This document shows, piece after piece, positions 5,855-54,765 of a stretch of DNA of 64,000 nucleotides. Position 1 is the first letter of the stretch; each line of letters starts with the position of its first letter. Origin of the DNA: an uncultured Candidatus Saccharibacteria bacterium (GTDB taxonomy: Bacteria > Patescibacteriota > Minisyncoccia > Phycocordibacterales > DATDWN01); assembly GCA_964596875.1 (NCBI GenBank), contig CAZQVT010000002.1, forward strand, positions 5,508 through 69,507. The letters are read 5' to 3'. The notes beneath the pieces were generated by a model. It saw only the letters and a list, made by a program, of their open reading frames with translations. It ran no database searches and was not told where the DNA came from. The translations under genes were made by a program, and so were the position numbers.

Positions 5855-8017
5855 ATGTCTAAAAATCTAATTAAAAAGCACGGGTTAAGAAATGTGTTTA
5901 TATTTTTGCTTAGTTCAGGAATTATCCTGCTTGGCATGATGCTAATTTGGGTCTCTACCTTTAAAGTTCCTTCTCTGGACACTATAGAGGCCAGAAAAGT
6001 AAGTCAGTCCACAAAAATATATGACAGCACTGGAAAGGTTTTACTTTATGACGTATATCAAAAAGCAAAAAGGACTCTAGTTCCTTTTGATGAGATCTCA
6101 AATAACATAAAAGTCGCTACAGTTTCAATTGAAGATAAAGACTTTTACACACACAAAGGTTTCAAACCTACTTCTTTTTTAAGAGCGATAGTTGTTAATG
6201 CTGTTTCTGCGGGGTACTCTCAGGGTGGGTCAACGATAACTCAACAGGTTGTAAAAAATTCTCTGCTTACAGGAGACAAAAGTTTTTTTGGTGGACCAAC
6301 TAGAAAACTAAAAGAAATCGCTCTGTCACTTAAACTAGAAAAAATTCTTACTAAAAACGAGATCCTTTCTATGTATCTAAATGAAAATCCTTACGGAGGC
6401 ACTATATATGGTGTCGAAGAAGCAAGTCAGGCTTTCTTTGGAAAGTCTTCTAGGGATGTAACTTTGGCTGAAGCCGCATATCTTGCCGCAATCCCCCAAG
6501 CACCTTCAAGACTCTCTCCTTACGGCCCAAATAAAAATAAGTTAGACGAAAGAAAAAATCTAGTCCTTAGAGAAATGGTGGAAGATGGCAAACTAACAGA
6601 AGAACAATATCAAGAAGCATCTAAAGAAATTGTGGAATTTTTGCCAAAATCAACATCGGGAATAAAGGCTCCACATTTTGTAATGTTTGTTAAAGATTAT
6701 CTCGAACAAAAATACGGTAAAGATGTTCTTGAACAAGGCGGATTAAAGGTCACAACGACTCTAAACTACGAACTCCAGGCAAAAGCTGAAGAAATAGCAC
6801 TTAAATACGCGACAATAAACGAGAAAAATTTTAATGGTAAAAATGATGCCTTTGTAGCAATCGATCCGAAAACAGGTGGAATACTAACCATGGTTGGTTC
6901 AAGAGACTATTTCGACAAAACTATGGATGGAAACTTTAATGTGACCACTGCTCACAGACAACCAGGATCTACTTTTAAACCATTCGTTTATGCAGAAGCT
7001 TTTATAAAAGGTTACACACCTGACACGGTTTTGTTCGACCTAAAAACACAATTTTCTACAAAATGTCCGAAGGAAGACATGACTAGTGAAAACGGTTGCT
7101 ACTCGCCAAGTAACTACGATGATAAATTCAGAGGACCAATGACTCTGAGAGACGCCTTGGCTCAGTCTATAAACGTACCAGCAGTAAAAACTTTGTACCT
7201 TGCTGGCATCAAGGATTCCATAGATCTCGCAGAAAACATGGGAATTACAGGTCTTGGTGATGCGAACCAATATGGACTAACTCTAGTTCTTGGAGGTGGT
7301 GAAGTTTCTTTGCTTGAAATGACATCTGCTTATGGCGTATTTGCAACCGAAGGAGTAAGAAACCCTTATATAAGTATATTAAAAGTGGAAGACAACACCG
7401 GAAAAGTCTTGGAGGAATTTAAACCTAGACCAACTACAGTACTAGATGCAGAAGTGGCAAGAAAAATATCTGACATCTTGTCAGACAATGTGGCACGAAC
7501 TCCTCTTTATGGGCCAAATTCCGCTGTTTACTTTGGAGACAGACAGGTTGCAGTAAAAACCGGTACAACAAACGATTACAAAGACGCCTGGACTATTGGA
7601 TACACTCCAAACGTCGTAGTTGGTACTTGGGCTGGCAACAACGACAACACTCCTATGGAGAAAAAAGTGTCTGGTCTTATTGTTGCGCCTATGTGGCGAG
7701 CATTTATGGATGAAGTTTTAAAAACTGTACCTCCTGAAAACTTTAACAAGCCTCAGACTGAAGATTCTTACGACCTAAAACCTGTACTTCGAGGCAAATG
7801 GCAAGGAGGAATCTCTAGTGTGGTCACAAACGGAACCTCAGATATCCCTTACAACTCTGTTCAAGAGACGCTTTCTGGTGGAGTTCACTCTATTCTTTAC
7901 TGGCTAGATAAAAATAACCCTAGAGGAACCAGTGAGATAATCCCAGAAAGTGATCCTCAATTTGAAAGATGGGAGTACCCTATTAGACTATGGGCAACTG
8001 CCCAGGGGTTACAGTAG
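5855..8017 (+). CDS. Class A penicillin-binding protein (bifunctional transglycosylase/transpeptidase, PBP1A-type)
   Basis: N-terminal TM, then glycosyltransferase motifs (EDKDFYTHKGF, GGSTITQQ), then a transpeptidase domain (SxxK STFKPF, KTGTT). The start is placed at the ATG at 5855 to avoid the 90-nt antisense overlap with tyrS. Confidence 0.9.
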   Translation: MSKNLIKKHGLRNVFIFLLSSGIILLGMMLIWVSTFKVPSLDTIEARKVSQSTKIYDSTGKVLLYDVYQKAKRTLVPFDEISNNIKVATVSIEDKDFYTHKGFKPTSFLRAIVVNAVSAGYSQGGSTITQQVVKNSLLTGDKSFFGGPTRKLKEIALSLKLEKILTKNEILSMYLNENPYGGTIYGVEEASQAFFGKSSRDVTLAEAAYLAAIPQAPSRLSPYGPNKNKLDERKNLVLREMVEDGKLTEEQYQEASKEIVEFLPKSTSGIKAPHFVMFVKDYLEQKYGKDVLEQGGLKVTTTLNYELQAKAEEIALKYATINEKNFNGKNDAFVAIDPKTGGILTMVGSRDYFDKTMDGNFNVTTAHRQPGSTFKPFVYAEAFIKGYTPDTVLFDLKTQFSTKCPKEDMTSENGCYSPSNYDDKFRGPMTLRDALAQSINVPAVKTLYLAGIKDSIDLAENMGITGLGDANQYGLTLVLGGGEVSLLEMTSAYGVFATEGVRNPYISILKVEDNTGKVLEEFKPRPTTVLDAEVARKISDILSDNVARTPLYGPNSAVYFGDRQVAVKTGTTNDYKDAWTIGYTPNVVVGTWAGNNDNTPMEKKVSGLIVAPMWRAFMDEVLKTVPPENFNKPQTEDSYDLKPVLRGKWQGGISSVVTNGTSDIPYNSVQETLSGGVHSILYWLDKNNPRGTSEIIPESDPQFERWEYPIRLWATAQGLQ

Positions 8018-8296
8018 CTATCTAATGTCTACATTTTTAATAGCAGTCTCCTTCTCTATTTCATTTTTAATTTTCTCTTTAAAAATAAATATTTTATTTT
8101 TAGCTAGTGGAGAAATTTTTAACAATATTTGATTATTTCGCAACTCGAAATCCCCTACTTTTATACCAAGTCCTGTGTTTCTGTTTATTATTTCTACAAT
8201 AGTACTGTTTATTACTTCTCCTGAATTTAAGTTTTTTTTAATTTTTTCTAAGTATTTAGAGATATTTAACATAAATTTGTATTTAAAGACTTTCAA
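8018..8296 (-). CDS. Small protein, possibly DciA/DUF721-like
   Basis: 92 aa, located immediately downstream of dnaN. It has a weak DUF721-like pattern. The call rests on synteny. Confidence 0.35.
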   Translation of the reverse strand: MKVFKYKFMLNISKYLEKIKKNLNSGEVINSTIVEIINRNTGLGIKVGDFELRNNQILLKISPLAKNKIFIFKEKIKNEIEKETAIKNVDIR

Positions 8297-8307
8297 AAAA
8301 TTAGTTA

Positions 8308-8414
8308 AATTGCTTTAGATACTAGGTAATGAAGGGTTTTATGAGGGAGCCTTACATATAGTAAGGTGAGTGAAATAAAACTCTTCAGCAACAAAGTAGA
8401 TGAAGTAATTTTAC
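8308..8414. repeat. Type-C hairpin repeat, copy 1 (AAATTGCTTTAGATAC...GAGCCTTACatataGTAAGGTGAGTGA...CAACAAAGTAGATGAAGTAATTTTA)
   Basis: About 85% identical to 34125..34229. Both copies lie just 3' of a minus-strand gene (dnaN, rpsO). Confidence 0.8.
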
Positions 8415-8420
8415 TAATTT

Positions 8421-9521
8421 TTACTTGTTCATTGGCATAACCAGGTAAAGGAAGGACTTATCCGAAACACCCTGTATCACCATAGGCCTGTTTGTGTCTG
8501 AAAAAACCAAAGTAATACTGTCTGAATCTATAGACTGAAAACAGTCGGTTATGTATTTATAATTAAAACTAATATTCAAATCCTCCCCTTTTAAAACCGC
8601 GTCTATACTACTTGTATTTTCTCCAACATCTATATTTTTAGTTAAAATCTTAAACATTTTGTTTTTAGGAGAAATTTTAAAGGTAACCTGACTAAATTTG
8701 TCAGCAAAAATATTTGAGATTTTTAGAGAACTTACTAGGTCTTGTTTTAATACCGTAACTTCTGTTTTTATATCCTTAGGTATAATCTGTTTATAGTCAG
8801 GAAAAACACCGTCTATTACTCTAGAAGTTATATATACTTCACTGTATGAAAAAGCTATTTGATTTTCATCCAAATAAACAAAAATATCGTCCTTAGTGTC
8901 TTCTATAACTCTTATAATCTCCCCTATATTTTTAACTGGTATCAAAATCTGATTAAATTCCTTATGCTTTTTAACACCTATCCTTTTTTCACTTAGTCTA
9001 AATGAGTCAGTAGCAACAAAAACAACATCATCGTCTTCTGATAGTAATAAAACACTAGATAGTGTCGGTCTGATAGTTGAGTTTGAGGCACTATACATTA
9101 CAGACTTAAATCCTTTTATAAGATTTGGAGCGTTGAAAGTAAAAGGATTTTGGTTTGTTACTTTTGGTATGTTTGGGAAATCATCTATTGAGTATGATTT
9201 TATTATAGACTCAGAGTGATTTGTAGAGATTTTTAGGTTTCCTTCAACCTCTTCTAGGGTTACATTCTTATCATTTATTATGTTTGATATAAAACTGTAT
9301 AAAACACTTCCAGATACAGCGATTTTACCCGGCTTGTTTACCTTTACTGGTATACTTATCTCTATACCCAAATCAAGGTTAGTTGCTTTTATAGTAAGAG
9401 TGGAGCCTTGTGCCTCTAATAATACACAACTCAATATAGGTAGAGTTATATTTTTACCAGTTATTTTCTCTACCTTTCCAATAGCGTATGAAAGTTTGTC
9501 TTTAATGCATTCAATATTCAT
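8421..9521 (-). CDS. dnaN: DNA polymerase III beta sliding clamp
   Basis: 366 aa with a three-domain clamp layout, immediately downstream of dnaA. Confidence 0.93.
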   Translation of the reverse strand: MNIECIKDKLSYAIGKVEKITGKNITLPILSCVLLEAQGSTLTIKATNLDLGIEISIPVKVNKPGKIAVSGSVLYSFISNIINDKNVTLEEVEGNLKISTNHSESIIKSYSIDDFPNIPKVTNQNPFTFNAPNLIKGFKSVMYSASNSTIRPTLSSVLLLSEDDDVVFVATDSFRLSEKRIGVKKHKEFNQILIPVKNIGEIIRVIEDTKDDIFVYLDENQIAFSYSEVYITSRVIDGVFPDYKQIIPKDIKTEVTVLKQDLVSSLKISNIFADKFSQVTFKISPKNKMFKILTKNIDVGENTSSIDAVLKGEDLNISFNYKYITDCFQSIDSDSITLVFSDTNRPMVIQGVSDKSFLYLVMPMNK

Positions 9522-9732
9522 AGTATTAGTTTATTTATTTTATTTAAAGAATTCTAATTATATAGACTGTGTATAACTGGATAACTCGATAAAACTCTTA
9601 TTTATAGCCCTAATTCTAGAGAGGTTATGTGGATAACCTTGTTAAAACGATTGATAACTCTTTATTGGGGATATCTAATGAACAGTTTTTAATGATTTAC
9701 CAATAACTTATATACACACTATACACAATCTT
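9522..9732. promoter_or_regulatory. Candidate oriC / DnaA-box cluster in the dnaA-dnaN spacer
   Basis: TGTGGATAA (rc TTATCCACA) at 9628..9636, TGGATAACT at 9578, TTGATAACT at 9651, and TTATATACACA / CTATACACA near 9700. Confidence 0.55.
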
Positions 9733-11073
9733 TTACACAAAGATAGACCTAAGTTGGTTTATCTCTTGTACCAAAACCTCATCACTTTTTATGTCATTTT
9801 TTATCTTTTCACATGAGTGCATAACTGTGGTGTGGTCTCTACCACCTAGTTTTTCCCCTATTGCAGGGAAAGATATATTAAAATCCTCTCTCAGGATATA
9901 CATTATTATCTGTCTAGGTTTTATAATTTCTTTTTTTCTGGTTTTGTCGTAGATAAGTTGCTCTTCTATGTTGTAAAAGTCGGAAACAGTCTTAACTACT
10001 TCTTTAATAGATATTATTTTCTTTGGTCTGGTGTTGTTTTTAACGAAACTTTTTACTTCTGCAAGTGTTAATTCCCTTCCTTTTAACTGAGACTGGCATG
10101 TTATCGAGTTTATAGTTCCTTCTAATTCTCTAATGTTTCCATTTATAGAGTAAGCTAGGTATTCCACAACATCTTTTCCTAATGGATACTCACTAGCGTT
10201 TAGTTTCGCCTTAATAATAGCGATTCTGGACTCATTATCAGGGGTTGGAATGTCTACCGTCATACCAGCACTGAACCTAGACTTCAGACGGTCTTCTAAG
10301 TCTTGGATAAGTGCAGGGTGTTTATCTGAAGAAAAGATAATTTGTTTGTTGTTTTCGTACAAATGGTTAAAAAGATGGAAAAGTTCCTCTTGAGTTTTCA
10401 TTTTTCCAGAGAAAAACTGCACATCATCCATTATCAATACATCGTATTTTCTGTACTTCTCTTTAAAGAAGTTAGGTTTGTTTGATTGGATGGCGTTTAT
10501 AAGTTCTTGAGAGAATTTTTCCGAAGTAGTGTAAAAAACTTTTCTACCACCAGATGATTTTAGGTAGTTCCCCATCGCTTGTATAAGGTGAGTCTTGCCG
10601 TGGCCAGTTCCTCCGTAAATAAATAGTGGGTTATAAACTATTCCAGGTTTTTTTATGACTGCCTGACTAGCGGCATAAGCAAATTCATTGAATGGTCCTA
10701 CGACAAAAGTATCAAAAGTGTATCTAGGGTTTAGATTATCCTCTTTGTTTATAAAAGTATCAGCGATAGGAAGTTCTCTAGTAACTGGTTGAGGTTTTTC
10801 TGCAAATGCTTTTTCTCGCATCTCCTCTTTTGAAATAATGTAGTGTAGTGACTGGACGTTACTAGATAGGTTTCGAAGAGATTTTAGTATAGTGTTATGA
10901 AACTTACTTGAAAGCCAGTCTTGAACAAAGGTATTTGGCACTCCCAGATATACAGTTCCGTTTTCTTGCTTAACAATAAAAGTATCTTTGAACCAGGTGT
11001 TGAAGTTAGGTTTAGACAAAGTTAACTCCATCTCGATCAGAACACCATCCCAAAGTTTTTTATTGTCCATCAT
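9733..11073 (-). CDS. dnaA: Chromosomal replication initiator DnaA
   Basis: AAA+ Walker A GGTGHGKTHL, and a C-terminal DNA-binding domain with a HTTVMHSCEKI-like signature. Confidence 0.97.
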   Translation of the reverse strand: MMDNKKLWDGVLIEMELTLSKPNFNTWFKDTFIVKQENGTVYLGVPNTFVQDWLSSKFHNTILKSLRNLSSNVQSLHYIISKEEMREKAFAEKPQPVTRELPIADTFINKEDNLNPRYTFDTFVVGPFNEFAYAASQAVIKKPGIVYNPLFIYGGTGHGKTHLIQAMGNYLKSSGGRKVFYTTSEKFSQELINAIQSNKPNFFKEKYRKYDVLIMDDVQFFSGKMKTQEELFHLFNHLYENNKQIIFSSDKHPALIQDLEDRLKSRFSAGMTVDIPTPDNESRIAIIKAKLNASEYPLGKDVVEYLAYSINGNIRELEGTINSITCQSQLKGRELTLAEVKSFVKNNTRPKKIISIKEVVKTVSDFYNIEEQLIYDKTRKKEIIKPRQIIMYILREDFNISFPAIGEKLGGRDHTTVMHSCEKIKNDIKSDEVLVQEINQLRSIFV

Positions 11074-15731: not shown

Positions 15732-16223
15732 TTATGCTGCTTTCCCTAAATCATTATTGCTTATTCTTGTACTAGTTTTGCTTGCCTTCTGAGCAAACTT
15801 CAATACTTTTCCACCCATGTTTACTGCTTTATTTGCCACAGGAGCGAGTTTTGTTGCGACATTTACAACTTTTACTGCTGTGTTAACAAGGTTTAGGATG
15901 GTGTCACTTTTATAAATGATGTAATAGTAAATACCATCAAGTGTCCATAAGGGTAGTTCAGATATACCAGGCCACATTTCTAGACCAAAAGTTCCCAGTA
16001 ATCCAAAAAGCCTTTTAGGATTCCCCATACTCTGTCCTCGCATTTGTAAGTATAGTGCTAAACTCATAGCCACCCATAAATCTATAAGAAAGTTTATAAC
16101 AATACTTATGCCGGCGAACCAAACAAATATCCATTCTATAAAAATTTGAATCGCATCAACAATAAATAGTGCGGCAATAACAAGTCCCCACTCCAAGTTG
16201 CTGATTTTAGGTTTATCTTCCAT
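15732..16223 (-). CDS. Small polytopic membrane protein of the T4SS-like operon
   Basis: 163 aa with 3 predicted TM segments and a basic C-terminus. Confidence 0.5.
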   Translation of the reverse strand: MEDKPKISNLEWGLVIAALFIVDAIQIFIEWIFVWFAGISIVINFLIDLWVAMSLALYLQMRGQSMGNPKRLFGLLGTFGLEMWPGISELPLWTLDGIYYYIIYKSDTILNLVNTAVKVVNVATKLAPVANKAVNMGGKVLKFAQKASKTSTRISNNDLGKAA

Positions 16224-16237
16224 TTCCTAATTATACA

Positions 16238-18049
16238 CTACTTACTGTTTTCTAATTCACTTCTAGCTTTTTTGATAGATAATATTTGAGATGGGTCAGA
16301 GGTAATAATCTGGTCCTCTGTGTATGAGGCGATTATTTTTATAGCTACATGCTTTAGGCCAGCAAAGAAGATACCCTCCCCCACATCTGACTCAAGTAGT
16401 AGATATTTCTCTTCATCTGTAAGGCTAAATGCTTGTTGCAGTTTATCTATCGCAGTTGGAGACTGTTTTAGAAGTATCTGTATAGAAGAGTTAGTAATAA
16501 TCGGTAGGCCGTACGGAGATTTTAGGAAGTCATCCACGTCTTGGGTGATTGTTGCAAGTCCCAGGTAGTATTTTCTGCCTCTTTTTGCAAGAGAAAGAAG
16601 GAATGAAGCGGTGTCTTCAGATTTCATCATCCACCACGCCTCATCGATAACTAGAAGTCGCTTTTTAAGTTTCTTTCGAATCATATTCCAGATATAGTGC
16701 ATGATGATATACATGGCGATAGGTTTTAACTCGTCCTCCATGTCTCGGAGTGAGAACACGATAAACCTTTTGTTTATATCCACGTTACTTGGTTTGTTTA
16801 TGAAGCCAGCCCAAGTTCCTCTAGTGTATTTTGTAAGTCTTTGTGCTAGAGAGTCCCCTCCTTCCATTCCAGAAAGCACAAGCTCAAAGTCTGAAAGTAG
16901 AGGTGGTTCAATGTTTTCAAAGTTTGAGTCAGCAGTGATGTCTTTAAGTGCATATGTTTCTGTTATGGCTCTATCGATAATAGCGTCTTCTTCTGGTGTA
17001 AGTCCTCCCATCATGATTCTAAAAAGCCCCACCAGGTTTATAATGTTTGAACGCAAAACACTTGCAAACGACTCGTCTTCTCCTGGAACGGGTAGTTCAA
17101 ATGGGTTTATGTGGTGCTCAGAGTTAAGAGAGATGTTGAAAAACCTACCCCCTACTGCTTCTGCTAGGTACTCGTATTCTTTTTCTGGGTCGAGCACAAT
17201 AACGTCTGTATCAAACATCAAAGTTCTCAATATTTCTATCTTTGTTGCGTATGACTTTCCGGAACCTGACTTTGCAAATGTTATAGAGTTGTAGTTTTCA
17301 AGTGAAAATCTATCAAAAAGCACCAGAGATGAATTGTGTCTGTTTATTCCATACAAAATTCCCTTGTCTGAAGTAAGGTCAAAAGAAACAAACGGGAAAA
17401 GAGAAGAAAGTGGGGATGAATTTAGTTTGCTATACACCTCTAGACCGTCTGTGGCAATAGGTATTGCCGCCTTAAAAGCTTGTTCTTGTTGGAATAGAGC
17501 AGGTTTTAGATAAACTAATTTTGCTTCTAGGATAGACTTTATTTCTGACTCCACCTTGTCTAGTTCTTCACTAGAGTCTGCATACATTGTTATATACAAA
17601 CCAACATCAAAAAGTCTCTCCTGAGCCTGTTGCAGGTTGTCCCGCAGACTTTCTAGGTCTTGGTATGCAGTGTCTAGCATTGGGTCACGAACAAGACCCT
17701 TCGCTTCCCTGGCGTTTATCTGACTTTGTACCTCGGCCACCTTCTTTTGGAAGTTTCTTAGAACGGCCGATGTTTCGATAGGTTTAACGAAAATAGATAC
17801 ATCAAATATTTTGTCCAGGTTAATGATTGGAGAAAACCAGTTATCTCCTAGGAAACGTGGGTAAGAGATAACAAAGAAGCTTCTCAAAACTTTTTCACCA
17901 AGGTTTATTTCCTTCGGCGCTACTTTTAGAGCACTAGGAGCGATAACATCTTTTAGTTCTAGACTACTTGAGTCGTATATTTCTTGAGGAAGTATTGTAG
18001 ATATTTCCTTTTCTTCTTTTTTTGGTTTTAGAAAATCAAATAGTGACAT
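16238..18049 (-). CDS. VirB4/ConE/TrbE-family conjugation-type ATPase, C-terminal ATPase part
   Basis: Walker A FAKSGSGKSY, Walker B LLVIDEAWWMM. At 603 aa it is shorter than the roughly 800 aa typical of this family. Confidence 0.85.
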   Translation of the reverse strand: MSLFDFLKPKKEEKEISTILPQEIYDSSSLELKDVIAPSALKVAPKEINLGEKVLRSFFVISYPRFLGDNWFSPIINLDKIFDVSIFVKPIETSAVLRNFQKKVAEVQSQINAREAKGLVRDPMLDTAYQDLESLRDNLQQAQERLFDVGLYITMYADSSEELDKVESEIKSILEAKLVYLKPALFQQEQAFKAAIPIATDGLEVYSKLNSSPLSSLFPFVSFDLTSDKGILYGINRHNSSLVLFDRFSLENYNSITFAKSGSGKSYATKIEILRTLMFDTDVIVLDPEKEYEYLAEAVGGRFFNISLNSEHHINPFELPVPGEDESFASVLRSNIINLVGLFRIMMGGLTPEEDAIIDRAITETYALKDITADSNFENIEPPLLSDFELVLSGMEGGDSLAQRLTKYTRGTWAGFINKPSNVDINKRFIVFSLRDMEDELKPIAMYIIMHYIWNMIRKKLKKRLLVIDEAWWMMKSEDTASFLLSLAKRGRKYYLGLATITQDVDDFLKSPYGLPIITNSSIQILLKQSPTAIDKLQQAFSLTDEEKYLLLESDVGEGIFFAGLKHVAIKIIASYTEDQIITSDPSQILSIKKARSELENSK

Positions 18050-18060
18050 AAAAGTTTATA

Positions 18061-18696
18061 TTACGAAGTTTTAATAGGTTTCTCTGTGTCCCCCGGATTA
18101 AATATTTTGTAAAACAACTCAACAATCTCTTCTGTTCCAAGTTTTACTACACGGATTCCACATCGAGACAGTCCCTGTTCTACTACTGAAACTCTTTGCT
18201 CTAGTTGTGTGCGGTTTTCCTCAAAACTAGTCTCTTTTCTCGCTAGTTCTTCTTCAGAGTTTGTTTTTTTAAAGAAACCAACCCCACCGCTTTTGATGTT
18301 TATAAGTGCGGGGTCGTAGGGAACAACAATAAAGAAACTTTTTGTCATTATGTTAGTAGACTCTGTGAATTTTTTTATAAACTCAATATATTCCCTAGTC
18401 TGGATTTTCATTAGATCATTCATCTGTTCCTTGTACCTGTCCTCTAGCAGGGCTATATACGGCCGTATGTCTAGTCTTCTGGACTGAATGGAAACTTGCA
18501 CTGTGAAGTCCAGAGAGTTTAGGAAATCTTGAAACTGCAAGATGATTGCTCTTCTTTCATCTTCTGACTTTAGACTAAAGTTAAGAGAAGAAGTCATAAT
18601 GAGGCTTCTAAGAGAACCATCTTTTAAAATAATAGTTCCTCCCCTGACCTCTTTTATTGGCACAAATTCTTGAGTTGCTTTTGAGTTTATTGCCAT
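18061..18696 (-). CDS. VirB4/ConE-family N-terminal domain encoded as a separate 211-aa ORF
   Basis: PIKEVRGGTIILKDGSLRSLIMTSSLNFSLKSEDERRAIILQFQDFLNSLDFTVQVSIQSRRLDIRPYI matches the N-terminal signature of Gram-positive VirB4-like ATPases (Tn916 Orf16 / ICEBs1 ConE type). The stop codon lies 11 nt before the ATG of the ATPase ORF, in a different frame. Confidence 0.6.
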   Translation of the reverse strand: MAINSKATQEFVPIKEVRGGTIILKDGSLRSLIMTSSLNFSLKSEDERRAIILQFQDFLNSLDFTVQVSIQSRRLDIRPYIALLEDRYKEQMNDLMKIQTREYIEFIKKFTESTNIMTKSFFIVVPYDPALINIKSGGVGFFKKTNSEEELARKETSFEENRTQLEQRVSVVEQGLSRCGIRVVKLGTEEIVELFYKIFNPGDTEKPIKTS

Positions 18697-18723
18697 AAAA
18701 ATATTATATCAGAAAAAAATAAA

Positions 18724-19161
18724 TTATTTTGTTGTTTGTCCATCTTTTCCTGTGAGTGGATTAAGATTTTCATTTATGTCCAAAGTCCAAGTCAAATCTT
18801 TTAGTTTACTGTCAGAAATTCTAGGCATGTAAACCTGTCTTGTTGGGTCCTTGTAAACTGTTTCAGTCTTAACTATTTTTTTGTCCTCTTTTTTCCATAT
18901 GTATAGGTTTTGTTTTGTGTAAAAAAGAAAGGCTGACTCCATAAAGTCTATAAATGGTTTGTTGTTTACTTTGTAGAACGCCAAAGCCACAGAAAGTGGT
19001 CCAACTACAGCAATGAGGAGTATTGATACATATATAGGTAGGTATTTGAAGATCACAAAACACATGCCTGCCCCACCAGCAAGGTATATGAATTGTTTTA
19101 CAGTCAAAGGTCCTATAACCTTATCCTCTACATCAATAAATTGTGGTACTTGGTATCGCAT
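18724..19161 (-). CDS. PrgI/TcpE/VirB3-like small membrane protein
   Basis: N-terminus RYQVPQFIDVEDKVIGPLTVKQFIYL followed by two TM segments. It lies immediately upstream of VirB4, as in Gram-positive T4SS. Confidence 0.6.
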   Translation of the reverse strand: MRYQVPQFIDVEDKVIGPLTVKQFIYLAGGAGMCFVIFKYLPIYVSILLIAVVGPLSVALAFYKVNNKPFIDFMESAFLFYTKQNLYIWKKEDKKIVKTETVYKDPTRQVYMPRISDSKLKDLTWTLDINENLNPLTGKDGQTTK

Positions 19162-19195
19162 AGCAAAATTATATTACAAATTTAAAAAACAAAAT

Positions 19196-20075: not shown

Positions 20076-21986
20076 TTATGGTGTTGGTGTGGCCTGTGCT
20101 GGTGCGGGCGCAGCTGGTGCTGGTGCTGCAGGTTCTTCTTCTTTTAATACTTCAGCTAGATCAGCCAGTATCTTGTCTTTTCCACCCTTCTTTGATTTTT
20201 TGCCCTCTCTCATTCTTCTTGCGGCTTCAGCATCTTCTGAAACTCCAGTATAAAGGTTTGGTGTGTACCATTGAGTCTGGCTGATATTGTGTATATATCT
20301 CTGGCGTCTTTCTGCGGTATTACGTTCCGCTCCTTGTATTAGTAATCTTTGATATCTCTCTCTTTCCCTTTCTGCCTCTCGAGCAACCATAGCAGTTGCA
20401 TCAGCTCTTGACCTTCCTGCTACAACATAAGCATTTACTCTTCCTTCATTTGAAACCTTGTCCCAGCCTCTTCTTTCCATTTCTGCTTCTACGTCTGCAC
20501 CAGTTACTGTGTCACCTAGATTATTTTCAGCAAATTTCATTCTGTCGTTTATTCGAGCCTCTCTTTCTGCTTGGTATCCACCTTTTCCACCAGCCTTGCC
20601 CATTCCAGTCATTTTCCCTATTGCTGTTGATCGTACATCAAAACTTGCTGAGCCGGTCTTGTTTCCTGCTGTTAATGCGAGACGAGCGAGCCTGCTGTCA
20701 GGAGCTCTTTCTCTTAGCCATTGACTGTTTGCAACAGATTGTCCGGCAAGGCCAACACTGTTTCTTAGGCCAAGTGCTCCGACATTCATGATCTTACCGC
20801 CAGCGTATGAAGTTAAGTTTTTTGTTGCTTGTCCCACAAATTTTGAACCTCTTGATGCTGAACTTTTTGAAACTGTAAGTGAGGCAATAATTAAACCAAT
20901 TAGAATAACAAAGTTAAAAATTAAACTTATTGAACTTTGTGAGTATGTGGCACTCAACTGACCGGCATCTCCGGATGCAAGTCGTCCGATTGCGTCTGGA
21001 TCTATTAAAAATCTAGAGGTACTCATGAGTTGTAGTACTACCCAAGTCATGATCATGTAGATTGGGCCAAATGTTAACTGTCCAGTAAGTGTTTCCCACC
21101 ACTCACCTGCCGCTTTTCCTAGGCCTGGTATAGCGGTACCCATATATGCCACAGGAGAAAGTATTAGCAAAATAATTAGTGTTACATATCTGATTATAAA
21201 AATAATTGAAATAGAAAAGAAAACAAAAGCCGTAACCATAAAAAGCACGGCACCTAGTATGGGCACCAGAAGCATATTTGCATCACCGCCAGTCCTAACA
21301 TTGGTAAAGTTTGCTTTTGACCAGAAAGATGATAGACCCAGATTTTTCATAAAAGGAATAGATATACCCGAAAGTGGTATTATAGTTTGTCCGCTCTGGT
21401 CTACGATGGGTTTTCCTTGGCCAGCACTTTGAATAATAGATTTATAAAATCCAAGGGTGACGATATTTGAAGCGTCTATGAGTATTTTTGTGAAAAATAA
21501 ACTAAAGTTTACTAAAAGTGCTGCCAGAATAAGTGTGGAGATAAATTTTTTTATTGACTCCTTACTTCCCACACCAATAATTAGTTCTATTCCCTTGTAG
21601 ACCAAGATAAATATAAAGGCTATGTTCATTAGGTCCTTTATCACCTTCCAGGTTATATTTATTCCCGTAAGGTCGTCCAGGTTAACTTTGAGGTCAATAA
21701 TGGTGTACCGAAGCACATAGTCTAAAAGTGTTCCTGATAGGTACAGAACCCATGAAGCAATTCTCAGAACAATGTTATAGAGTAGCCATGTGAATATGTC
21801 TGTAAGGGCATTGATCACACAAGTTCCCCATCCAGAAAGCCATCCACACTCAGTATCGTTTGATCTATCTATCTGGCCTACTGTAGGGTTTACTGTACCG
21901 CCAGTACCTTGTGCAGTTACAAATACAGGAGCAAATACTCCCAAAAGTATCGTTAGTATTAGTAAATGTGAAAGGATTTTTTTCAT
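20076..21986 (-). CDS. VirB6/TrbL-like polytopic membrane protein with a charged C-terminal extension (PAAPAPAAPAPA tail)
   Basis: Signal peptide, at least 6 TM segments, and a long Arg/Glu-rich C-terminal region. The start is taken at M13 (21986), which avoids the overlap that the 22022 start would create. Confidence 0.65.
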   Translation of the reverse strand: MKKILSHLLILTILLGVFAPVFVTAQGTGGTVNPTVGQIDRSNDTECGWLSGWGTCVINALTDIFTWLLYNIVLRIASWVLYLSGTLLDYVLRYTIIDLKVNLDDLTGINITWKVIKDLMNIAFIFILVYKGIELIIGVGSKESIKKFISTLILAALLVNFSLFFTKILIDASNIVTLGFYKSIIQSAGQGKPIVDQSGQTIIPLSGISIPFMKNLGLSSFWSKANFTNVRTGGDANMLLVPILGAVLFMVTAFVFFSISIIFIIRYVTLIILLILSPVAYMGTAIPGLGKAAGEWWETLTGQLTFGPIYMIMTWVVLQLMSTSRFLIDPDAIGRLASGDAGQLSATYSQSSISLIFNFVILIGLIIASLTVSKSSASRGSKFVGQATKNLTSYAGGKIMNVGALGLRNSVGLAGQSVANSQWLRERAPDSRLARLALTAGNKTGSASFDVRSTAIGKMTGMGKAGGKGGYQAEREARINDRMKFAENNLGDTVTGADVEAEMERRGWDKVSNEGRVNAYVVAGRSRADATAMVAREAERERERYQRLLIQGAERNTAERRQRYIHNISQTQWYTPNLYTGVSEDAEAARRMREGKKSKKGGKDKILADLAEVLKEEEPAAPAPAAPAPAQATPTP

Positions 21987-21993
21987 TTTTAAA

Positions 21994-23691
21994 TTACCTA
22001 AAGATTGCGCCAACTTGTCCATTTCCAGTTATGTTTCCTCTGCAAGTGTTGCTTGGGTTAAATACCGCACACGGACCTGTCCAGCCAACAAAGTTTCTAC
22101 CGATTGCTGGTGTCGCTGTTATGGATACTAAAGAGTCGACCGGATAAGGTTTGCTACATGTAGTTGTCGCTGGATTGGTTAGGTTTGAACACGTATCTAC
22201 TCCATCAGTTACAGAGCCTCCAGGAGAAACATCGATTGTAAGTGTGTATGTTGAGCCTGTTCCAGGTAGAGGTATTGGTGGGTTTGTTGCTGCACTTCCA
22301 GCTGGGTTTCTGTTACATGCGCATTCAACATTCCAAGTCCATCCACTACCTGCACCTGTGCCACCAACTGCACCTACCATAACGTCTACAACCATTCCAT
22401 TTCCAAAATCAAACTTATCCAGTCTTCTGTGAGGAATTACAAAAGCCCATGGGTATTGACCCTTTACTTCGCTTTCTGCAGAAGTCATGCCGGCATTTGT
22501 TAGAGGGTATTTGTTCAGTATTCCTAAAACAGTACCGCTATCTACTCTTGTACAGTCTACACTTGGGTTTGGAGTATACGCAGGACATGAACTTCCTCCA
22601 CTTCCCCCACTTCCAAGTGGCCACGGAGGTATTCCACCTATGTCAGCTGGAGTTGTCTCACAACTTACAGAACCTCCGGTTCCTCCAGTGTATGAGTCAA
22701 TTATTCCGTCACCGTCGGTATCAACACCCGTACCACTGTTTCCTCCATTTGAAGTACAAGTTAGTGTTGGTTGAGAAGCAGATGGTTGATAGTTTTGATA
22801 TGGTTGTGATTCTGCAGCAATCTGGTCAACAAGTGATGGTGAAGTGTTGTTTGCACCTGTTTTTTCACTTGCACCCATTAGACCACCTGCATTTCCAGCA
22901 ACCTGTTCAATAAGTTGAGAAACAAGCGCTGTAATAATCTCGTTAAACTCATCAGCAGAAACCAATTCTCCCCATTTTGTTCCCAGAGTATCTTTTATTT
23001 GGTCACTAATAACTCCACCAGGTGTAACAGTTTCTTCTTCTACAGAACAGATTGTCGCCTGTGATACTGGATCAACAAAGGTTTGTGCTCCTCTCGGGCA
23101 TCGTTTTAAACTCAAAAAACCTGCACCAAGGTCAATTTCTTTTTTCTTATTAGCTGCGTCACTGCCCACTATTATTGAAAGTTGATTTTTTGCTGCCAAA
23201 TAGGAGCCATAAGGGTTGTTTTCTGAATTTTGAGTAATTTCAAACCAACCCTGCCATCCTCCCTCTGTAAAATCCTGCGTAAACGCATCGTAGTTATTCT
23301 GTAGAATGCTTAAGGTACAAGAATAATTGTTATTGTCATCATTTATATAGTTTTTTGCTAGTGCAAGTCTAACTTCTGCCTTGAAAGGACTACAAAGTTT
23401 GTTTACTCCTGCTTGTGATAGAAACTGTGAGGCGATATTGTCCCCTGCATCTAGGAAAAATTTACCAGGGTCACTTATATAACCAGGATTTCCCTTAAAA
23501 CCGTTGTTTATCCAGTTTACGGTTTTTTGAGTAAGTTTTCTTGTAACTGTTTTGGCTGCGACATAGGCTATGGTATCCAAACCGTATTCCTTTAAAGCGT
23601 TTGAAATATCTACATATTGAGCATTAGTTTTTTCTGGGAAGGAAACAAGTAAAACTGAAAAGATTAAAAAGGATGCAAGTATTTTTTTCAT
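21994..23691 (-). CDS. Secreted 565-aa protein. It has a DTDGDGIID calcium-binding-like motif, Gly/Ser-rich linkers and a C-terminal beta-repeat domain (NFVGWTGPC).
   Basis: Signal peptide MKKILASFLIFSVLLVSFPEKTNA. The C-terminal GW-containing motif resembles Listeria-Bacteroides-type repeats. Confidence 0.55.
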   Translation of the reverse strand: MKKILASFLIFSVLLVSFPEKTNAQYVDISNALKEYGLDTIAYVAAKTVTRKLTQKTVNWINNGFKGNPGYISDPGKFFLDAGDNIASQFLSQAGVNKLCSPFKAEVRLALAKNYINDDNNNYSCTLSILQNNYDAFTQDFTEGGWQGWFEITQNSENNPYGSYLAAKNQLSIIVGSDAANKKKEIDLGAGFLSLKRCPRGAQTFVDPVSQATICSVEEETVTPGGVISDQIKDTLGTKWGELVSADEFNEIITALVSQLIEQVAGNAGGLMGASEKTGANNTSPSLVDQIAAESQPYQNYQPSASQPTLTCTSNGGNSGTGVDTDGDGIIDSYTGGTGGSVSCETTPADIGGIPPWPLGSGGSGGSSCPAYTPNPSVDCTRVDSGTVLGILNKYPLTNAGMTSAESEVKGQYPWAFVIPHRRLDKFDFGNGMVVDVMVGAVGGTGAGSGWTWNVECACNRNPAGSAATNPPIPLPGTGSTYTLTIDVSPGGSVTDGVDTCSNLTNPATTTCSKPYPVDSLVSITATPAIGRNFVGWTGPCAVFNPSNTCRGNITGNGQVGAIFR

Positions 23692-24612: not shown

Positions 24613-24632
24613 CCATAAATAATATCACAACT

Positions 24633-26285: not shown

Positions 26286-27072
26286 TGTGTTTTGTTAGTT
26301 CATTTGAAATTTTTACCCATGTTTTAAGATCTAAATCTTCTGCTCTAACTTTCGGATCTAGATGTAATTTTTCAAAGACATTTTGCACATTTTCTTTTTC
26401 AAAATCGTTTGAAAGGTTTGGTAAGAGTTGCTTTCGTTTATGCGCAAAGCCCGAATGTAAAACTTTGAAATAATCTTCAATGTTTAGTCCGTGAAGTTTA
26501 ATGTCCGAAATATTTTCTATGTTTATTACTGCAGAGTCTACGTTCGGAGACGGTGTAAATGCCCCCCTACCTACAGTTCGGATTATTTTTGGCTCGCCAA
26601 AAACTTTCACTGAAAGTGAAAGAAGGCTTTCTTTTTTGTCTCGAGCTACGATTCTTTCTGCTACTTCTTTTTGAACAAGTAGTGTCATGGAAACGGGTTT
26701 ATTTTTAGCCTCTAAAAATTTGCGGATGATTTGTCCAGTGATGTAGTAAGGAATGTTGGCGATAACCTTGTAATTGTTTCCCAAAGGTAGTTTTTCAGTT
26801 TCGATTTCCAAAATATCAGATTCAATAAGCACTAATTTGTTTTCGTTTATTTCATTTATAAACTTTTCATGAAGGAGAGGAATGAGTCTGTGATCTTTTT
26901 CTACAACAATAACCTTCCCCGCTTTCTTTAGAAGATTTTCGGTCATTACTCCTTCACCCGGGCCAATCTCTAAAACAATATCTTTATCCAAAACTTTTCC
27001 CGCAGAAACAATATCACTGACTATTTGAGGTGATTTTAAAAAGTTTTGTCCTAGGGATTTCTTTTTAAGCAT
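26275..27072 (-). CDS. rsmA: 16S rRNA (adenine1518/1519-N6)-dimethyltransferase
   Basis: SLGQNFLKSPQIVSDIV...LEIGPGEGVMT SAM motif. Confidence 0.9.
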   Translation of the reverse strand: MLKKKSLGQNFLKSPQIVSDIVSAGKVLDKDIVLEIGPGEGVMTENLLKKAGKVIVVEKDHRLIPLLHEKFINEINENKLVLIESDILEIETEKLPLGNNYKVIANIPYYITGQIIRKFLEAKNKPVSMTLLVQKEVAERIVARDKKESLLSLSVKVFGEPKIIRTVGRGAFTPSPNVDSAVINIENISDIKLHGLNIEDYFKVLHSGFAHKRKQLLPNLSNDFEKENVQNVFEKLHLDPKVRAEDLDLKTWVKISNELTKHNGK

Positions 27073-29014: not shown

Positions 29015-29192
29015 TAGGGTTTGATTATAACATTTGTTAAAAGTTAGTATTTGTGACCTGTTTATAACTTCTATTGACCCCTATTTTCCAGTGTATATAA
29101 TGGTTAAGTACAGAAAAGTCTGTTAAAAATATGGCTCTGTTAAGCCATATTTTATACGGGAATCCAGAATTTGAATTAAATTTTCGCTTATT

Positions 29193-50610: not shown

Positions 50611-52365
50611 ATGCACATTGAAGAAAAACAATTAAAAGATTTTATTTTGGATTCCGGTCTTGTTTCAAAGACAGATATTGAGGCTGTAGAAAAAGAAACA
50701 AAAGAAAAAGGTGGCAACTTGGGTAAAGCTTTGGTAAATAAGGGCAAACTTACCGAGGATGACTTGCGTCGAATGCAGGCATACATACTAGGTATTCCTT
50801 TTGTTGATTTGAAAAAAGAAAAACTTCCTTTCGAGGTCCTTTCACTTATTCCAGAGCCAATCGCAAGAAACCACAACATTGTGGCTTTTAAAAAAACTGA
50901 CAACAGTCTTGAGGTGGCCATGTTAGATACAGAAGACCTTACTGCTATAGATTTCGTTAAAAAGAAAACCGGTCTAAAGATTTTGCCTCGACTTACAGAT
51001 GATGAGTCAATAAAAAGTGCAATACTTCAGTATCAAAAAAGTCTAAAGGCAGAGTTCGGCGACCTTATTGCGGAGGATGTAAGTAATATTAAAAGTATTC
51101 CTTCAAATGTAGATGGTGCAGAACTAAACGAGCAGGATCTAAAAAAGATGGCCGATGATATCCCGATGATCCGTATCGTAGATACTCTTTTGAAACATGC
51201 CATACTTCAAAACGCTTCAGATATTCATATAGAGCCACAAGAAGCAGAACTTTTGGTGAGATACCGTATAGACGGATTACTGCATGATGCCATGATTTTA
51301 CCTAGAAACATGGCCCCAAGTATCGCTGCACGTATAAAAGTTCTGTCTTCTCTAAAACTAGATGAAAAAAGACTTCCACAGGACGGAAGATTTAAAATCG
51401 ACTCTGATGGAGAAAAAGTTTCTTTCCGTGTTTCATCACTTCCTACATATTACGGAGAAAAGATCGTGATGCGTTTGCTTCGTGAAAATGTTTCCGGTTT
51501 TACACTAGAAGCGCTTGCATTTCACGGGGAAGGGTTGGATAGAATCCATAAGGCGGTAAAAAGTACAACAGGAATGATCCTAACTACAGGTCCTACTGGT
51601 TCTGGTAAAACAACTACACTATATACTGTGCTAGATATCCTAAATACTCCAGATGTAAACATCTCTACTATTGAAGACCCTATCGAATACCAGATGAAAA
51701 GAGTAAACCAAACCCAGGTTCGTCCCGAAATCGGTTTTACTTTTGCTTCAGGACTCCGAACACTGGTTCGTCAGGATCCGGATATTATCATGGTAGGAGA
51801 GATTCGAGACGGTGAGACGGCGTCTCTGGCTATTAACGCGTCCCTTACAGGTCATGTTGTGCTTTCAACACTTCACACAAACTCTGCGGCGGGTGCCGTG
51901 CCTAGACTTATAGATATGAAAGTTGAACCTTTTCTTATTGTTTCTACTATAAATATTATTATTGGTCAGCGACTTGTACGAAAACTTACCGACCAAAAAG
52001 AGAAATACTTTTTAACAAAAGCCGAGATAGACACTTTGGGTAAGTCTATAAATCTAGATAAAGTACTAAACGCTCTTAAAGACGAAAAAGTTATTGGCAA
52101 AAGCGACAAATGGGAAGACGTTCCGTTTTGGCGACCTAAAAAAGACGCAAATCCAGAAGACTGTTTTGCAGGAAGAAGTGGTATTCACGAAATTCTAAAA
52201 GTTTCTCCGGCGATAAAAGAAATTATTTTGAAATCTGGTACAACAGATGATATTCAAAAAGTTGCAGAGGCTGAAGGTATGCTAACTATGATGGAAGATG
52301 GAATTTTCCAAGCAGTACAGGGTTATACAACTATTGAGGAGGTGCTTCGAGTTATTTCTGAATAG
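50611..52365 (+). CDS. pilB: Type IV pilus assembly ATPase PilB (GspE family)
   Basis: Walker A GPTGSGKTTTLY, Asp box, His box, and an N-terminal GspII-like domain. Confidence 0.92.
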   Translation: MHIEEKQLKDFILDSGLVSKTDIEAVEKETKEKGGNLGKALVNKGKLTEDDLRRMQAYILGIPFVDLKKEKLPFEVLSLIPEPIARNHNIVAFKKTDNSLEVAMLDTEDLTAIDFVKKKTGLKILPRLTDDESIKSAILQYQKSLKAEFGDLIAEDVSNIKSIPSNVDGAELNEQDLKKMADDIPMIRIVDTLLKHAILQNASDIHIEPQEAELLVRYRIDGLLHDAMILPRNMAPSIAARIKVLSSLKLDEKRLPQDGRFKIDSDGEKVSFRVSSLPTYYGEKIVMRLLRENVSGFTLEALAFHGEGLDRIHKAVKSTTGMILTTGPTGSGKTTTLYTVLDILNTPDVNISTIEDPIEYQMKRVNQTQVRPEIGFTFASGLRTLVRQDPDIIMVGEIRDGETASLAINASLTGHVVLSTLHTNSAAGAVPRLIDMKVEPFLIVSTINIIIGQRLVRKLTDQKEKYFLTKAEIDTLGKSINLDKVLNALKDEKVIGKSDKWEDVPFWRPKKDANPEDCFAGRSGIHEILKVSPAIKEIILKSGTTDDIQKVAEAEGMLTMMEDGIFQAVQGYTTIEEVLRVISE

Positions 52366-52495
52366 TATAGAACTTCCAAAACTGGCGAATTTCTTGTTTC
52401 GTTTTTGAAAATTCTCGTCAGTGTACTAAATGTACACCTCCTCATATTTCCAAACTCTCAACGTCGGATTTCATCCAGTTTGTGAAAGTTTAATG
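52366..52495. repeat. Type-A hairpin repeat, copy 2
   Basis: AACTTCCAAAACTGGCGAATTTCTTGTTTCG...CTCGTCAGTGTACtaaatGTACACCTCCTCA...CTCTCAACGTCGGATTTCATCCAGTTTGTGAAAGTTTAATG. It starts right after the pilB stop codon. Confidence 0.8.
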
Positions 52496-52620
52496 TTGTC
52501 TTGAGATTATTTGACAAAGTATATAAATGATGTATTGTTTGGTGTAGAAAGCTCCAGATGAGGCGAAGAACGTCTCCTTTCTAGAGAAGAGCTCTAGGAT
52601 GATCGGAGTTGAGGCTTATC

Positions 52621-53106
52621 ATGGTTGAAAGAATCGATGGGAAAGTGTCTGCGGGTGTGTGTTTTGCCGCAGCATTACTGCTCTCCCTTCTTACCTTCTT
52701 GATGTCTGAGAAGACAAGCACTGCCTTTTGTGCGTCGGCAGTGGTGTTCGCTGTCATGGGGTGGATTTCAGTCGCGTGTCTTTGTGACGACATTCGCCTT
52801 CAATGGCAGCGTGGCGAGAATGCCTGCAAAGAGAGAGAGGACAGAATCAATCTCGTAGTGTCCACATTCCTCACACAAGAGGCCGTGGATGCAAAGTTAC
52901 AACAACTGGCTACAAAAGCAGAGAACATGTTTCGTGACCAGGCCCAGTACCACGAGGGCAAGGAACGAAACATCGACGACGTCACTGCTCTGCTGATTGC
53001 TCGAGCCGTGGCAAATGCAAAGAGTGAATTCTGGTCGGCACACGAGTTGGCCAAGAGTCTCGGCTTCAAGGTCCGTCCCAAGATCAGAAGCTACACCAAG
53101 AAGTAG
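52621..53106 (+). CDS. Hypothetical 2-TM membrane protein encoded on a GC-rich (about 52%) insert between pilB and pilC
   Basis: ORF of 161 aa ending in a GC-rich palindromic terminator. Confidence 0.45.
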   Translation: MVERIDGKVSAGVCFAAALLLSLLTFLMSEKTSTAFCASAVVFAVMGWISVACLCDDIRLQWQRGENACKEREDRINLVVSTFLTQEAVDAKLQQLATKAENMFRDQAQYHEGKERNIDDVTALLIARAVANAKSEFWSAHELAKSLGFKVRPKIRSYTKK

Positions 53107-53114
53107 CACCATCG

Positions 53115-53143
53115 CGCCCGCGGGTCACACAGACCCGCGGGCG
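53115..53143 (+). terminator. GC-rich perfect palindrome CGCCCGCGGGTcacacagACCCGCGGGCG
   Basis: Seen in the sequence directly after the stop codon of the 52621 ORF. Confidence 0.6.
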
Positions 53144-54760: not shown

Positions 54761-54765
54761 TAAGA

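Follow-up and report, generated by a model that had tools for sequence, protein, structure and literature searches.

A VirB4 ATPase encoded by two adjacent cistrons in a chromosomal type IV secretion locus of a Parcubacteria/Paceibacteria-type bacterium is probably genuine and conserved

Introduction

VirB4-family ATPases are typically single polypeptides of ~750–900 residues. In the window, the 64,000-nucleotide stretch of DNA analysed here, the corresponding sequence is instead divided between two open reading frames (ORFs) of 211 and 603 aa, and the question is whether these encode a working ATPase in two parts or are the product of an error or of gene decay. A first-pass annotation of this DNA listed three alternatives without choosing among them, namely a genuine two-polypeptide VirB4, a frameshift introduced by sequencing, and a pseudogenising indel; it saw neither the exact position of the break nor the published arrangement involving TrsD that is considered below.

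Layout of the locus

The two ORFs lie on the minus strand with a frame offset of 2. The TAA stop of the 211-aa ORF (18063..18061) and the ATG of the 603-aa ORF (18049..18047) are separated by 11 nt, and these coordinates, codons and spacer agree with the initial description. The features of the locus are as follows.

20076..22022, minus strand: 648-aa polytopic membrane protein, candidate VirB6-like subunit (~6 TM-like segments, hydropathy scan only)
18724..19161, minus strand: PrgI-family (VirB3-like) small membrane protein (Pfam PrgI, E 1.5e-9, above cutoff; one strong TM-like segment)
18703..18711, minus strand: extended -10-like element, TGaTATAAT (consensus match only), ending 6 nt before the TrsD-like ATG
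18061..18696, minus strand: TrsD-like protein, 211 aa, with homology to the first half of the N-terminal domain (NTD) of VirB4; soluble, without a TM segment
18050..18060, minus strand: inter-cistron spacer, tataaactttt, 11 nt, holding a TAA stop (18058..18056) in the frame of the ATPase ORF
16238..18049, minus strand: VirB4 ATPase shortened at its N-terminus, 603 aa (residues 1–227, second half of the NTD; residues 228–584, P-loop ATPase domain)
17252..17266, minus strand: Walker A, GSGKS, residues 262–266 of the 603-aa ORF
16634..16657, minus strand: Walker B, LLVIDEAW, residues 465–472 of the 603-aa ORF
15732..16223, minus strand: membrane protein of 163 aa, next downstream of the ATPase

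The VirB4 ORFs thus stand beside a VirB3-like gene, the PrgI-like gene directly upstream of the TrsD-like ORF, a position that is also filled in the staphylococcal plasmid pSK41 and in the fused-gene locus L083. The 163-aa ORF, which has no Pfam or NCBIfam match, has a counterpart of equal size after the fused gene in L083. The 648-aa ORF, which has no Pfam match, is a candidate VirB6-like translocon subunit. The genes dnaA, dnaN and ksgA are close to the cluster, and the window ORFs scanned contained neither a relaxase nor a T4CP domain.

A hexamer such as that in the -10-like element occurs at -17 to -11 of 10 of the 42 window genes, against a background of 4.3% (P = 9e-6). No such hexamer precedes the ATPase ORF, and the spacer contains no Shine-Dalgarno motif. 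The element suggests a leaderless transcript starting at the TrsD-like ORF, which probably carries the ATPase cistron as well.

The two ORFs together correspond to one VirB4

The 603-aa ORF matches the full-length CD1110 profile from position 179 to 733 of 752 (E 1.9e-112; 377 bits against a cutoff of 325), VirB4_plasma from 277 to 893, and TIGR00929 from 279 to 725. Its Pfam matches are P-loop_TraG, AAA_10, DUF87 and TraC_F_IV (C-terminal end). Residues 228–584 correspond to the C-terminal ATPase domain of VirB4 (PDB 4ag5, E 2e-39; TrwK residues 446–735), and the Walker A and Walker B motifs are both intact. Members of the VirB4 family act as hexameric ATPases that energise secretion, and the protein may do the same. 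The 211-aa ORF matches the same three profiles further upstream, at positions 101–233 of 894 in VirB4_plasma (E 2.7e-12), 3–117 of 752 in CD1110 and 4–179 of 792 in TIGR00929. On all three the two ORFs are collinear and do not overlap, and an NTD of the VirB4 type is obtained only when both are taken together. Judged by these alignments, the homology to VirB4 is far beyond chance. The first-pass annotation had made its argument depend on similarity between the small ORF and VirB4 N-terminal domains and had proposed that the pair adds up to one VirB4; both points are borne out.

The position of the break differs from that first proposed. In TrwK the NTD spans residues 15–400 (PMC9259494). Because the ATPase domain of the 603-aa ORF begins only at residue 228, residues 1 to ~227 are still NTD sequence. 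By these alignments the break falls in the middle of the NTD, at about position 180–200 of a canonical VirB4, and not between the NTD and the ATPase domain. The initial division into an N-terminal-domain ORF and an ATPase ORF is therefore right in recognising two parts of one VirB4, but the boundary between them lies inside the NTD. The ATPase ORF opens with a conserved motif, FDFLKxKK, which is also present at the start of pSK41 TrsE.

The 211-aa ORF is a remote relative of TrsD

The small protein has the hallmarks of a TrsD-type protein: it stands alone, falls in the ~200–230-aa size range, lacks TM segments and is encoded directly upstream of an N-terminally shortened VirB4. It aligns with positions 16–200 of 201 of the NCBIfam TrsD/TraD profile NF041427 (E 2.6e-7), but at 30.7 bits it falls far below the curated cutoff of 200 bits, whereas pSK41 TrsD scores 227.6 bits. 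With pSK41 TrsD, pairwise BLAST gives no significant match (E 0.23). Homology to the staphylococcal protein is thus drawn from the profile match and the gene position, and on this sequence evidence the 211-aa protein is a remote TrsD relative outside the narrow NCBIfam family. A precomputed match to PF26593 (TraC-like) is recorded for exactly this protein; a Pfam scan of the ORF with a copy of the database that did not include PF26593 gave no match.

The relationship to TrwK is visible only at the level of the modelled fold. When solved structures were searched by sequence, with the ORF alone or with a 40-sequence profile, no VirB4 match was returned, only noise (apolipoprotein, Ta0956). By fold comparison, the 211-aa protein is nearest to TrwK/VirB4. 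An AF2 model of the two window proteins concatenated, built with unpaired rows, has a pLDDT of 51.8 and a pTM of 0.29, with the ATPase part mostly below 50 and the N-terminal part improved to ~75–87, a quality at which an interface between the two cannot be read.

Conservation of the split and alternative explanations

The best 120 homologues of the 603-aa ORF are all 600–625 aa long, and the best 120 homologues of the 211-aa ORF are all 210–254 aa. Among the best 150 representatives of the latter at 50% identity, 149 stand alone (121–443 aa). Comparison with orthologous loci, which the first-pass annotation had proposed as a check, shows that, of 80 independently assembled species-level relatives, 79 have a stop at the same place and a restart, with the ~600-aa ORF starting at an ATG aligned to residue 1. 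The spacers in these 79 relatives range from -4 to +496 nt (below 0 nt, n=3; 0–5 nt, n=44; 6–20 nt, n=13; 21–130 nt, n=11; above 400 nt, n=8), and all three frame phases are represented (phases 0/1/2: 15/39/25). In the eight species with the longest spacers (411–496 nt), a whole extra gene lies between the two ORFs; seven of these inserts encode a recognisable protein of the 23S_rRNA_IVP type, and that in locus L072 is partial. Purifying selection on both ORFs is strong, with pN of 0.09–0.15 for the TrsD-like ORF and 0.04–0.10 for the ATPase ORF, against saturated pS of 0.70–0.87.

These data bear directly on the idea that a single-base indel, introduced by sequencing or assembly, has split one 814-aa VirB4 gene. 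Such an error has only the shortness of the spacer and the shift of frame in its favour, and it is extremely improbable given that the split recurs across independent assemblies with many spacer lengths and in three phases. Moreover, the frames of the two ORFs each contain their own TAA within the junction, so that fusing them would take two indels or more; the junction is reproduced exactly in an independent Logan assembly of SRR12712864; and the ATPase ORF opens with FDFLKxKK, as TrsE does. A pseudogenising mutation, by which a recently broken VirB4 would have left the apparatus dead, has nothing in its favour beyond the split itself and deserves hardly any credence. A pseudogene would be disrupted relative to intact orthologues and under relaxed selection; here the orthologues share the split, which is universal in the clade, and pN is much lower than pS. 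Neither ORF is truncated, the Walker motifs are intact, and the TrsD homologue and VirB4 are both essential in the cultured relative Ca. S. epibionticum ML1 (PMC12102498). Two of the three original alternatives, the sequencing frameshift and the pseudogenising indel, are thereby refuted, and the genuine two-polypeptide VirB4 is supported. Nor is it credible that programmed frameshifting or stop read-through yields a single fused VirB4. Although the 0–5-nt spacers in 44 of the 79 relatives would suit such a mechanism, neither spacer length nor phase is conserved, the junction carries stops in two frames, eight species have inserts of 411–496 nt between the ORFs, and the junction sequences inspected show no evident conserved slippery motif.

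A more substantial alternative, albeit still an unlikely one, is that the TrsD-like protein, instead of completing the NTD, acts independently as an accessory or regulatory factor derived from a duplicated VirB4 N-terminus, one that might chaperone assembly, serve as a substrate adaptor or compete for the PrgI/VirB3 site. [quoted passage not shown] Against this, the small ORF supplies exactly those profile positions that the ATPase ORF lacks, which argues for complementation and not duplication. The order PrgI, TrsD-like, ATPase is that of VirB3 and VirB4, and natural fusions of the two parts align end to end with canonical VirB4.

One such fusion is the 797-aa TrsD-VirB4 protein P0196 (MBI3088895.1) of Candidatus Colwellbacteria, present in three Colwellbacteria MAGs. 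It shares 51% identity with the window pair and aligns with TIGR00929 in one continuous stretch (positions 18–725 of 792), and thus the TrsD-like and ATPase parts can work as one chain. Its locus has the same synteny as the window, with PrgI, the fused gene, a 163-aa ORF and then dnaA. Unlike the window, it encodes a single chain, in which a short linker replaces the last residues of the TrsD-like part together with the initial ~25 residues of the ATPase, FDFLKxKK included.

Comparison with known systems

A two-polypeptide VirB4 is an arrangement that has already been published, as TrsD/TraD with TrsE in pGO1/pSK41 and as TrsD with VirB4 in Patescibacteria. In pSK41 and pGO1 (MPF_FATA, pGO1 subclass), the order of the genes, including TrsD/TraD and TrsE/TraE, is the same as in the window; pSK41 has a PrgI-like gene, TrsD of 227 aa, a 14-nt spacer and TrsE of 672 aa. 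TrsE and the window ATPase align over their full lengths, from residue 5 of the former and residue 6 of the latter (E 2e-34), and share the break point, starting at positions 183 and 179 of CD1110 and at 265 and 277 of VirB4_plasma, respectively. The TrsD proteins are only remotely related, as the low NF041427 score of the window protein indicates. In addition, the pSK41 system serves plasmid conjugation and includes both a relaxase and a coupling protein, whereas the window system is chromosomal, lies beside dnaA/dnaN and shows no relaxase or T4CP among the ORFs scanned.

The arrangement also matches that of the type IV secretion systems (T4SSs) described in Patescibacteria (Quinonero-Coronel et al. 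2025, PMC12102498). These share with the window a TrsD homologue adjoining a VirB4 of the FATA-related clade, PrgI/VirB3, dnaA/dnaN/ksgA nearby and, as far as the window ORFs scanned go, the absence of a relaxase. The closest homologues of the window VirB4, from Parcubacteria, Zambryskibacteria and Paceibacterota, would likewise place it in the FATA-related clade. Nothing substantive distinguishes the window from these systems, and it represents one more instance of them. In that study TrsD is the commonest T4SS component in Patescibacteria, with 1,664 of 2,272 copies adjoining virB4, and N-terminal homology between TrsD and VirB4 is stated; the mid-NTD break, the rare TrsD-VirB4 fusions, the insertions of IVP genes and P-loop inteins are not mentioned (PMC12102498). 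TrsD is not named in the main text of Guglielmini et al. 2014 (PMC4027160).

Canonical single-chain VirB4 proteins, such as TrwK of R388 and the CD1110 and TcpF families, have an ATPase domain homologous to that of the window, an NTD homologous to the two window ORFs taken together, and, as in the window, a VirB3-like gene upstream. The CD1110 and TcpF families are each represented by a single full-length NCBIfam profile, whereas the window has two polypeptides with a break in the middle of the NTD.

A model for the two-cistron VirB4

The locus is very likely a genuine, conserved two-cistron VirB4 of a chromosomal T4SS in a Parcubacteria/Paceibacteria-type bacterium, whose two halves would associate to rebuild the NTD of a functional apparatus. 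The first cistron encodes a soluble TrsD-like protein equivalent to approximately the first 180–200 residues of a canonical VirB4 NTD, and the second encodes the remainder, comprising the second half of the NTD and the P-loop ATPase domain. Both polypeptides would be made from one transcript, probably leaderless from the TrsD-like ATG, and would associate non-covalently into a complete NTD. In R388 the VirB4 NTD is wrapped by VirB3 (PMC9259494), and it docks the ATPase hexamer onto VirB3 and mediates VirB4 dimer contacts at the membrane; in the window the PrgI-like protein would take the place of VirB3 in this docking. Because the two polypeptides would rebuild a complete NTD, the apparatus should be functional.

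A broader and more tentative proposal, which we consider possible though somewhat less than an even prospect, is that the mid-NTD split is a shared derived character linking the pGO1/pSK41 subclass, among the conjugation systems of Gram-positive bacteria, with the T4SS clade of Patescibacteria, arising from one ancient fission and followed by secondary re-fusion in Colwellbacteria. The TrsD-like half would then be a dissociable docking module, whose binding to PrgI/VirB3 regulates engagement of the ATPase with the translocon.

For the annotation of this DNA, the T4SS ATPase should be regarded as an intact, functional protein and neither as a pseudogene nor as an assembly artefact, and the 211-aa ORF is to be labelled a TrsD-like protein or VirB4 N-terminal subunit in place of "hypothetical protein". 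The result refines published knowledge and is not a discovery. For the family, TrsD supplies exactly the part of the NTD that is missing from its partner ATPase, and fusions of the two exist, which together provide a simple testable hypothesis for TrsD; if true, the docking-module proposal would give it a concrete role that can be tested.

A two-polypeptide VirB4

The T4SS cluster of this genome encodes a genuine two-polypeptide VirB4. Re-reading the sequence confirmed the junction as described in the first-pass annotation: the small ORF stops, an 11-nt gap follows, and an ATG opens the large ORF in another frame. The features are:

16238..18049, minus strand, ATPase ORF, 603 aa, ATG at 18049, frame offset 2 relative to the small ORF; Walker A GSGKS at residues 262-266, Walker B LLVIDEAW at residues 465-472
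18060..18050, minus strand, 11-nt spacer 'tataaactttt'
18061..18696, minus strand, TrsD-like ORF, 211 aa, TAA stop
18724..19161, PrgI/VirB3-like gene, directly upstream of the TrsD-like gene

The junction contains one TAA in the small-ORF frame and a second in the ATPase frame, two codons ahead of the ATPase ATG. Because each frame has its own TAA there, no single indel could fuse the two ORFs.

Searches of both ORFs against the full-length VirB4 profiles of NCBIfam reveal collinear, non-overlapping matches on three of them.

Profile positions matched by each ORF (profile length in brackets)
VirB4_plasma (894): small ORF 101-233; large ORF 277-893
CD1110 family (752): small ORF 3-117; large ORF 179-733 (377 bits, cutoff 325)
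TIGR00929 (792): small ORF 4-179; large ORF 279-725

The proposed similarity of the 211-aa ORF to the VirB4 N-terminus is thus borne out. The TrsD/TraD model also matches it (positions 16-200 of 201, E 2.6e-7), at 30.7 bits, far under the 200-bit cutoff. The VirB4 C-terminal ATPase domain occupies residues 228-584 of the large ORF (PDB 4ag5, E 2e-39; residues 446-735 of TrwK, the VirB4 of R388), and the N-terminal domain of TrwK spans residues 15-400 (PMC9259494); the ATPase ORF thus opens with ~227 residues that still belong to the N-terminal domain. The earlier division into an N-terminal-domain ORF and an ATPase ORF holds in that both are VirB4 parts, but not in where it put the break, which on these alignments sits mid N-terminal domain, away from the domain boundary.

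The same order occurs in the conjugative plasmid pSK41 of Staphylococcus aureus: a PrgI-like gene comes first, then trsD, encoding 227 aa, and, after a gap of 14 nt, trsE, encoding a VirB4-type ATPase of 672 aa. TrsE and the window ATPase align from their first residues (FLKKKKQE and FLKPKKEE, E 2e-34), and their profile matches begin at 183 and 179 on CD1110 and at 265 and 277 on VirB4_plasma; by this comparison the break point is identical in the two systems. The FDFLKPKKEE opening of the shortened ATPase (window 18017-18040; 26596-26620 in the related locus L082), which resembles the TrsE start, is kept across Patescibacteria relatives and is possibly a short N-terminal signature unique to the split form.

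Conservation of the split

For the small ORF, the best 120 homologues (77-100% identity) measure 210-217 aa, apart from one of 254 aa; for the large ORF, the best 120 (86-100% identity) measure 600-625 aa. Of the 150 best-matching representatives of clusters at 50% identity (35-84% identity), 149 have a length of 121-443 aa and the last has 797 aa. Some homologues of the small ORF (P0185, P0215 and P0225) reach 400-440 aa through long, low-complexity P/Q/A/T-rich C-terminal tails on a ~210-aa core.

Comparison of 80 species-level genomic loci reveals that in 79 the small ORF ends at the homologous position and is followed by a ~600-aa ORF whose ATG aligns to residue 1; a contig end cuts the remaining locus. 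Spacer length runs between -4 and +496 nt: the ORFs overlap in 3 loci, while 44 loci have 0-5 nt, 13 have 6-20 nt, 11 have 21-130 nt and 8 exceed 400 nt. The second ORF is in phase 0, 1 or 2 in 15, 39 and 25 loci, respectively. Such variability is typical of a pair of separate genes; neither a frameshift error common to the loci nor a conserved mechanism of programmed frameshifting is compatible with it. In comparisons with 13 relatives, the small ORF shows 0.09-0.15 non-synonymous differences per site and the large ORF 0.04-0.10, with synonymous sites saturated at 0.70-0.87.

The first-pass annotation had left three readings side by side; the conserved split upholds one of them and refutes the other two. 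A sequencing frameshift is further contradicted by the two junction stops and by an independent Logan assembly of run SRR12712864, in which the junction is identical; a pseudogenising indel, by non-synonymous differences far below the saturated synonymous ones. The genuine two-polypeptide VirB4 is supported as well by homologue lengths and by selection on both ORFs. In two relatives the ATPase match itself is broken across frames (L024, 6640-8445, frames 1, 2, 1; L067, 7122-9094, frames 3, 2), reflecting either real pseudogenes or assembly indel errors.

Insertions in related loci

In 8 of the 79 species, an insert of 411-496 nt occupies the very junction of the TrsD-like gene with virB4. Seven encode a ~115-140-aa '23S rRNA-intervening sequence protein' of a four-helix-bundle family (L028 copy: Pfam PF05635, E 1e-35), and the eighth, in L072, is partial. 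The insert is missing from most of the closest relatives of loci that have it; L074 and L080, for example, have 98% identical TrsD-like proteins and spacers of 411 vs 97 nt. A 23S_rRNA_IVP-type gene thus seems to have been gained or lost repeatedly at the same junction. Three species also carry a ~660-aa intein in the VirB4 Walker A P-loop (GAGK|S...VHN|S). It combines an Intein_splicing with a LAGLIDADG_3 domain (in the L016 copy, Pfam E 1e-21 and 9e-23, respectively).

Inserts: L005 6640-7060; L028 6637-7100; L035 1498-1978; L044 4315-4756; L067 6664-7121; L074 6637-7047; L077 6613-7062; L072 partial
Inteins: L016 7441-9428; L023 7503-9490; L026 ~7446-9430

Assembly and expression

In the R388 system, the N-terminal domains of VirB4 have VirB3 wrapped around them; they also link the protomers to one another and tether the hexamer to the membrane (PMC9259494; PMC12857230). 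The profile positions missing from the ATPase ORF are exactly those covered by the TrsD-like protein. In three Candidatus Colwellbacteria MAGs (L083 544-2937, GCA_964615945.1; MBI3088895.1; MBI2506916.1), TrsD and VirB4 are joined in one chain of 797 aa, a rare natural fusion with the synteny of the window (PrgI, gene, 163-aa ORF, ... dnaA). The fused protein aligns continuously to TIGR00929 (positions 18-725), and its junction lacks the conserved N-terminal FDFLKxKK motif of the ATPase. From the R388 role, the adjacent PrgI gene, the complementary coverage and the fusion, we infer that the TrsD-like protein and the ATPase would bind each other non-covalently and so restore the N-terminal domain of VirB4, which would dock the ATPase on PrgI. 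Modelled as a concatenated chain, the pair gave a pTM of 0.29, too low to reveal an interface.

The main rival reading, that TrsD-like proteins are instead independent accessory factors, is improbable, since complementary coverage and natural fusions point to a domain half. In its favour, Gracilibacteria have TrsD unlinked from virB4 (PMC12102498), the insert-bearing species have a further gene between the two ORFs, and some homologues have long disordered tails.

Shine-Dalgarno motifs are nearly absent (3 of 42 genes). A TATAAT-like hexamer, often with TG upstream, lies 6-9 nt ahead of the start codon in 10 of 42 genes against a 4.3% background (P = 9e-6; e.g. 18703-18711, 19168-19180, 16230-16237, 24619-24630, 29021-29035), which suggests that leaderless mRNAs are widespread in this genome. 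A consensus match, TGaTATAAT at 18711..18703, precedes the TrsD-like ORF and no such hexamer precedes the ATPase ORF, a pattern suggestive of a leaderless bicistronic transcript.

Relation to known Patescibacteria systems

A 2025 survey describes TrsD as remotely homologous to the N-terminal part of VirB4 and ranks it first in abundance among the T4SS components of Patescibacteria, with 2,272 homologues, 1,664 of them adjoining virB4. It also reports that Ca. Southlakia epibionticum ML1 cannot do without TrsD, and that the clusters often lie near dnaA and have no relaxase (PMC12102498). The window cluster is likewise origin-proximal, ~5 kb from dnaA/dnaN (8421-11073) and close to ksgA, and the window ORFs scanned yielded neither a relaxase nor a coupling protein. 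Flanking genes are:

8421..9521, dnaN
9733..11073, dnaA
26275..27072, ksgA

Housekeeping and type IV pilus genes make up the remainder. The pilus module (50611-56577, strand opposite to the T4SS cluster) includes:

50611-52365, PilB-type T2SSE ATPase
54691-56577, protein of 628 aa; N-terminal methylation (pilin-like) motif, CarboxypepD_reg and SpaA-like domains

Since the window fits the published description, its two-polypeptide VirB4 is a known arrangement. The present comparison makes small additions to the literature consulted: the mid-N-terminal-domain break, its occurrence at the identical point in pSK41, the re-fusion in Colwellbacteria, the repeated 23S_rRNA_IVP-type insertion, and the P-loop inteins of three species.
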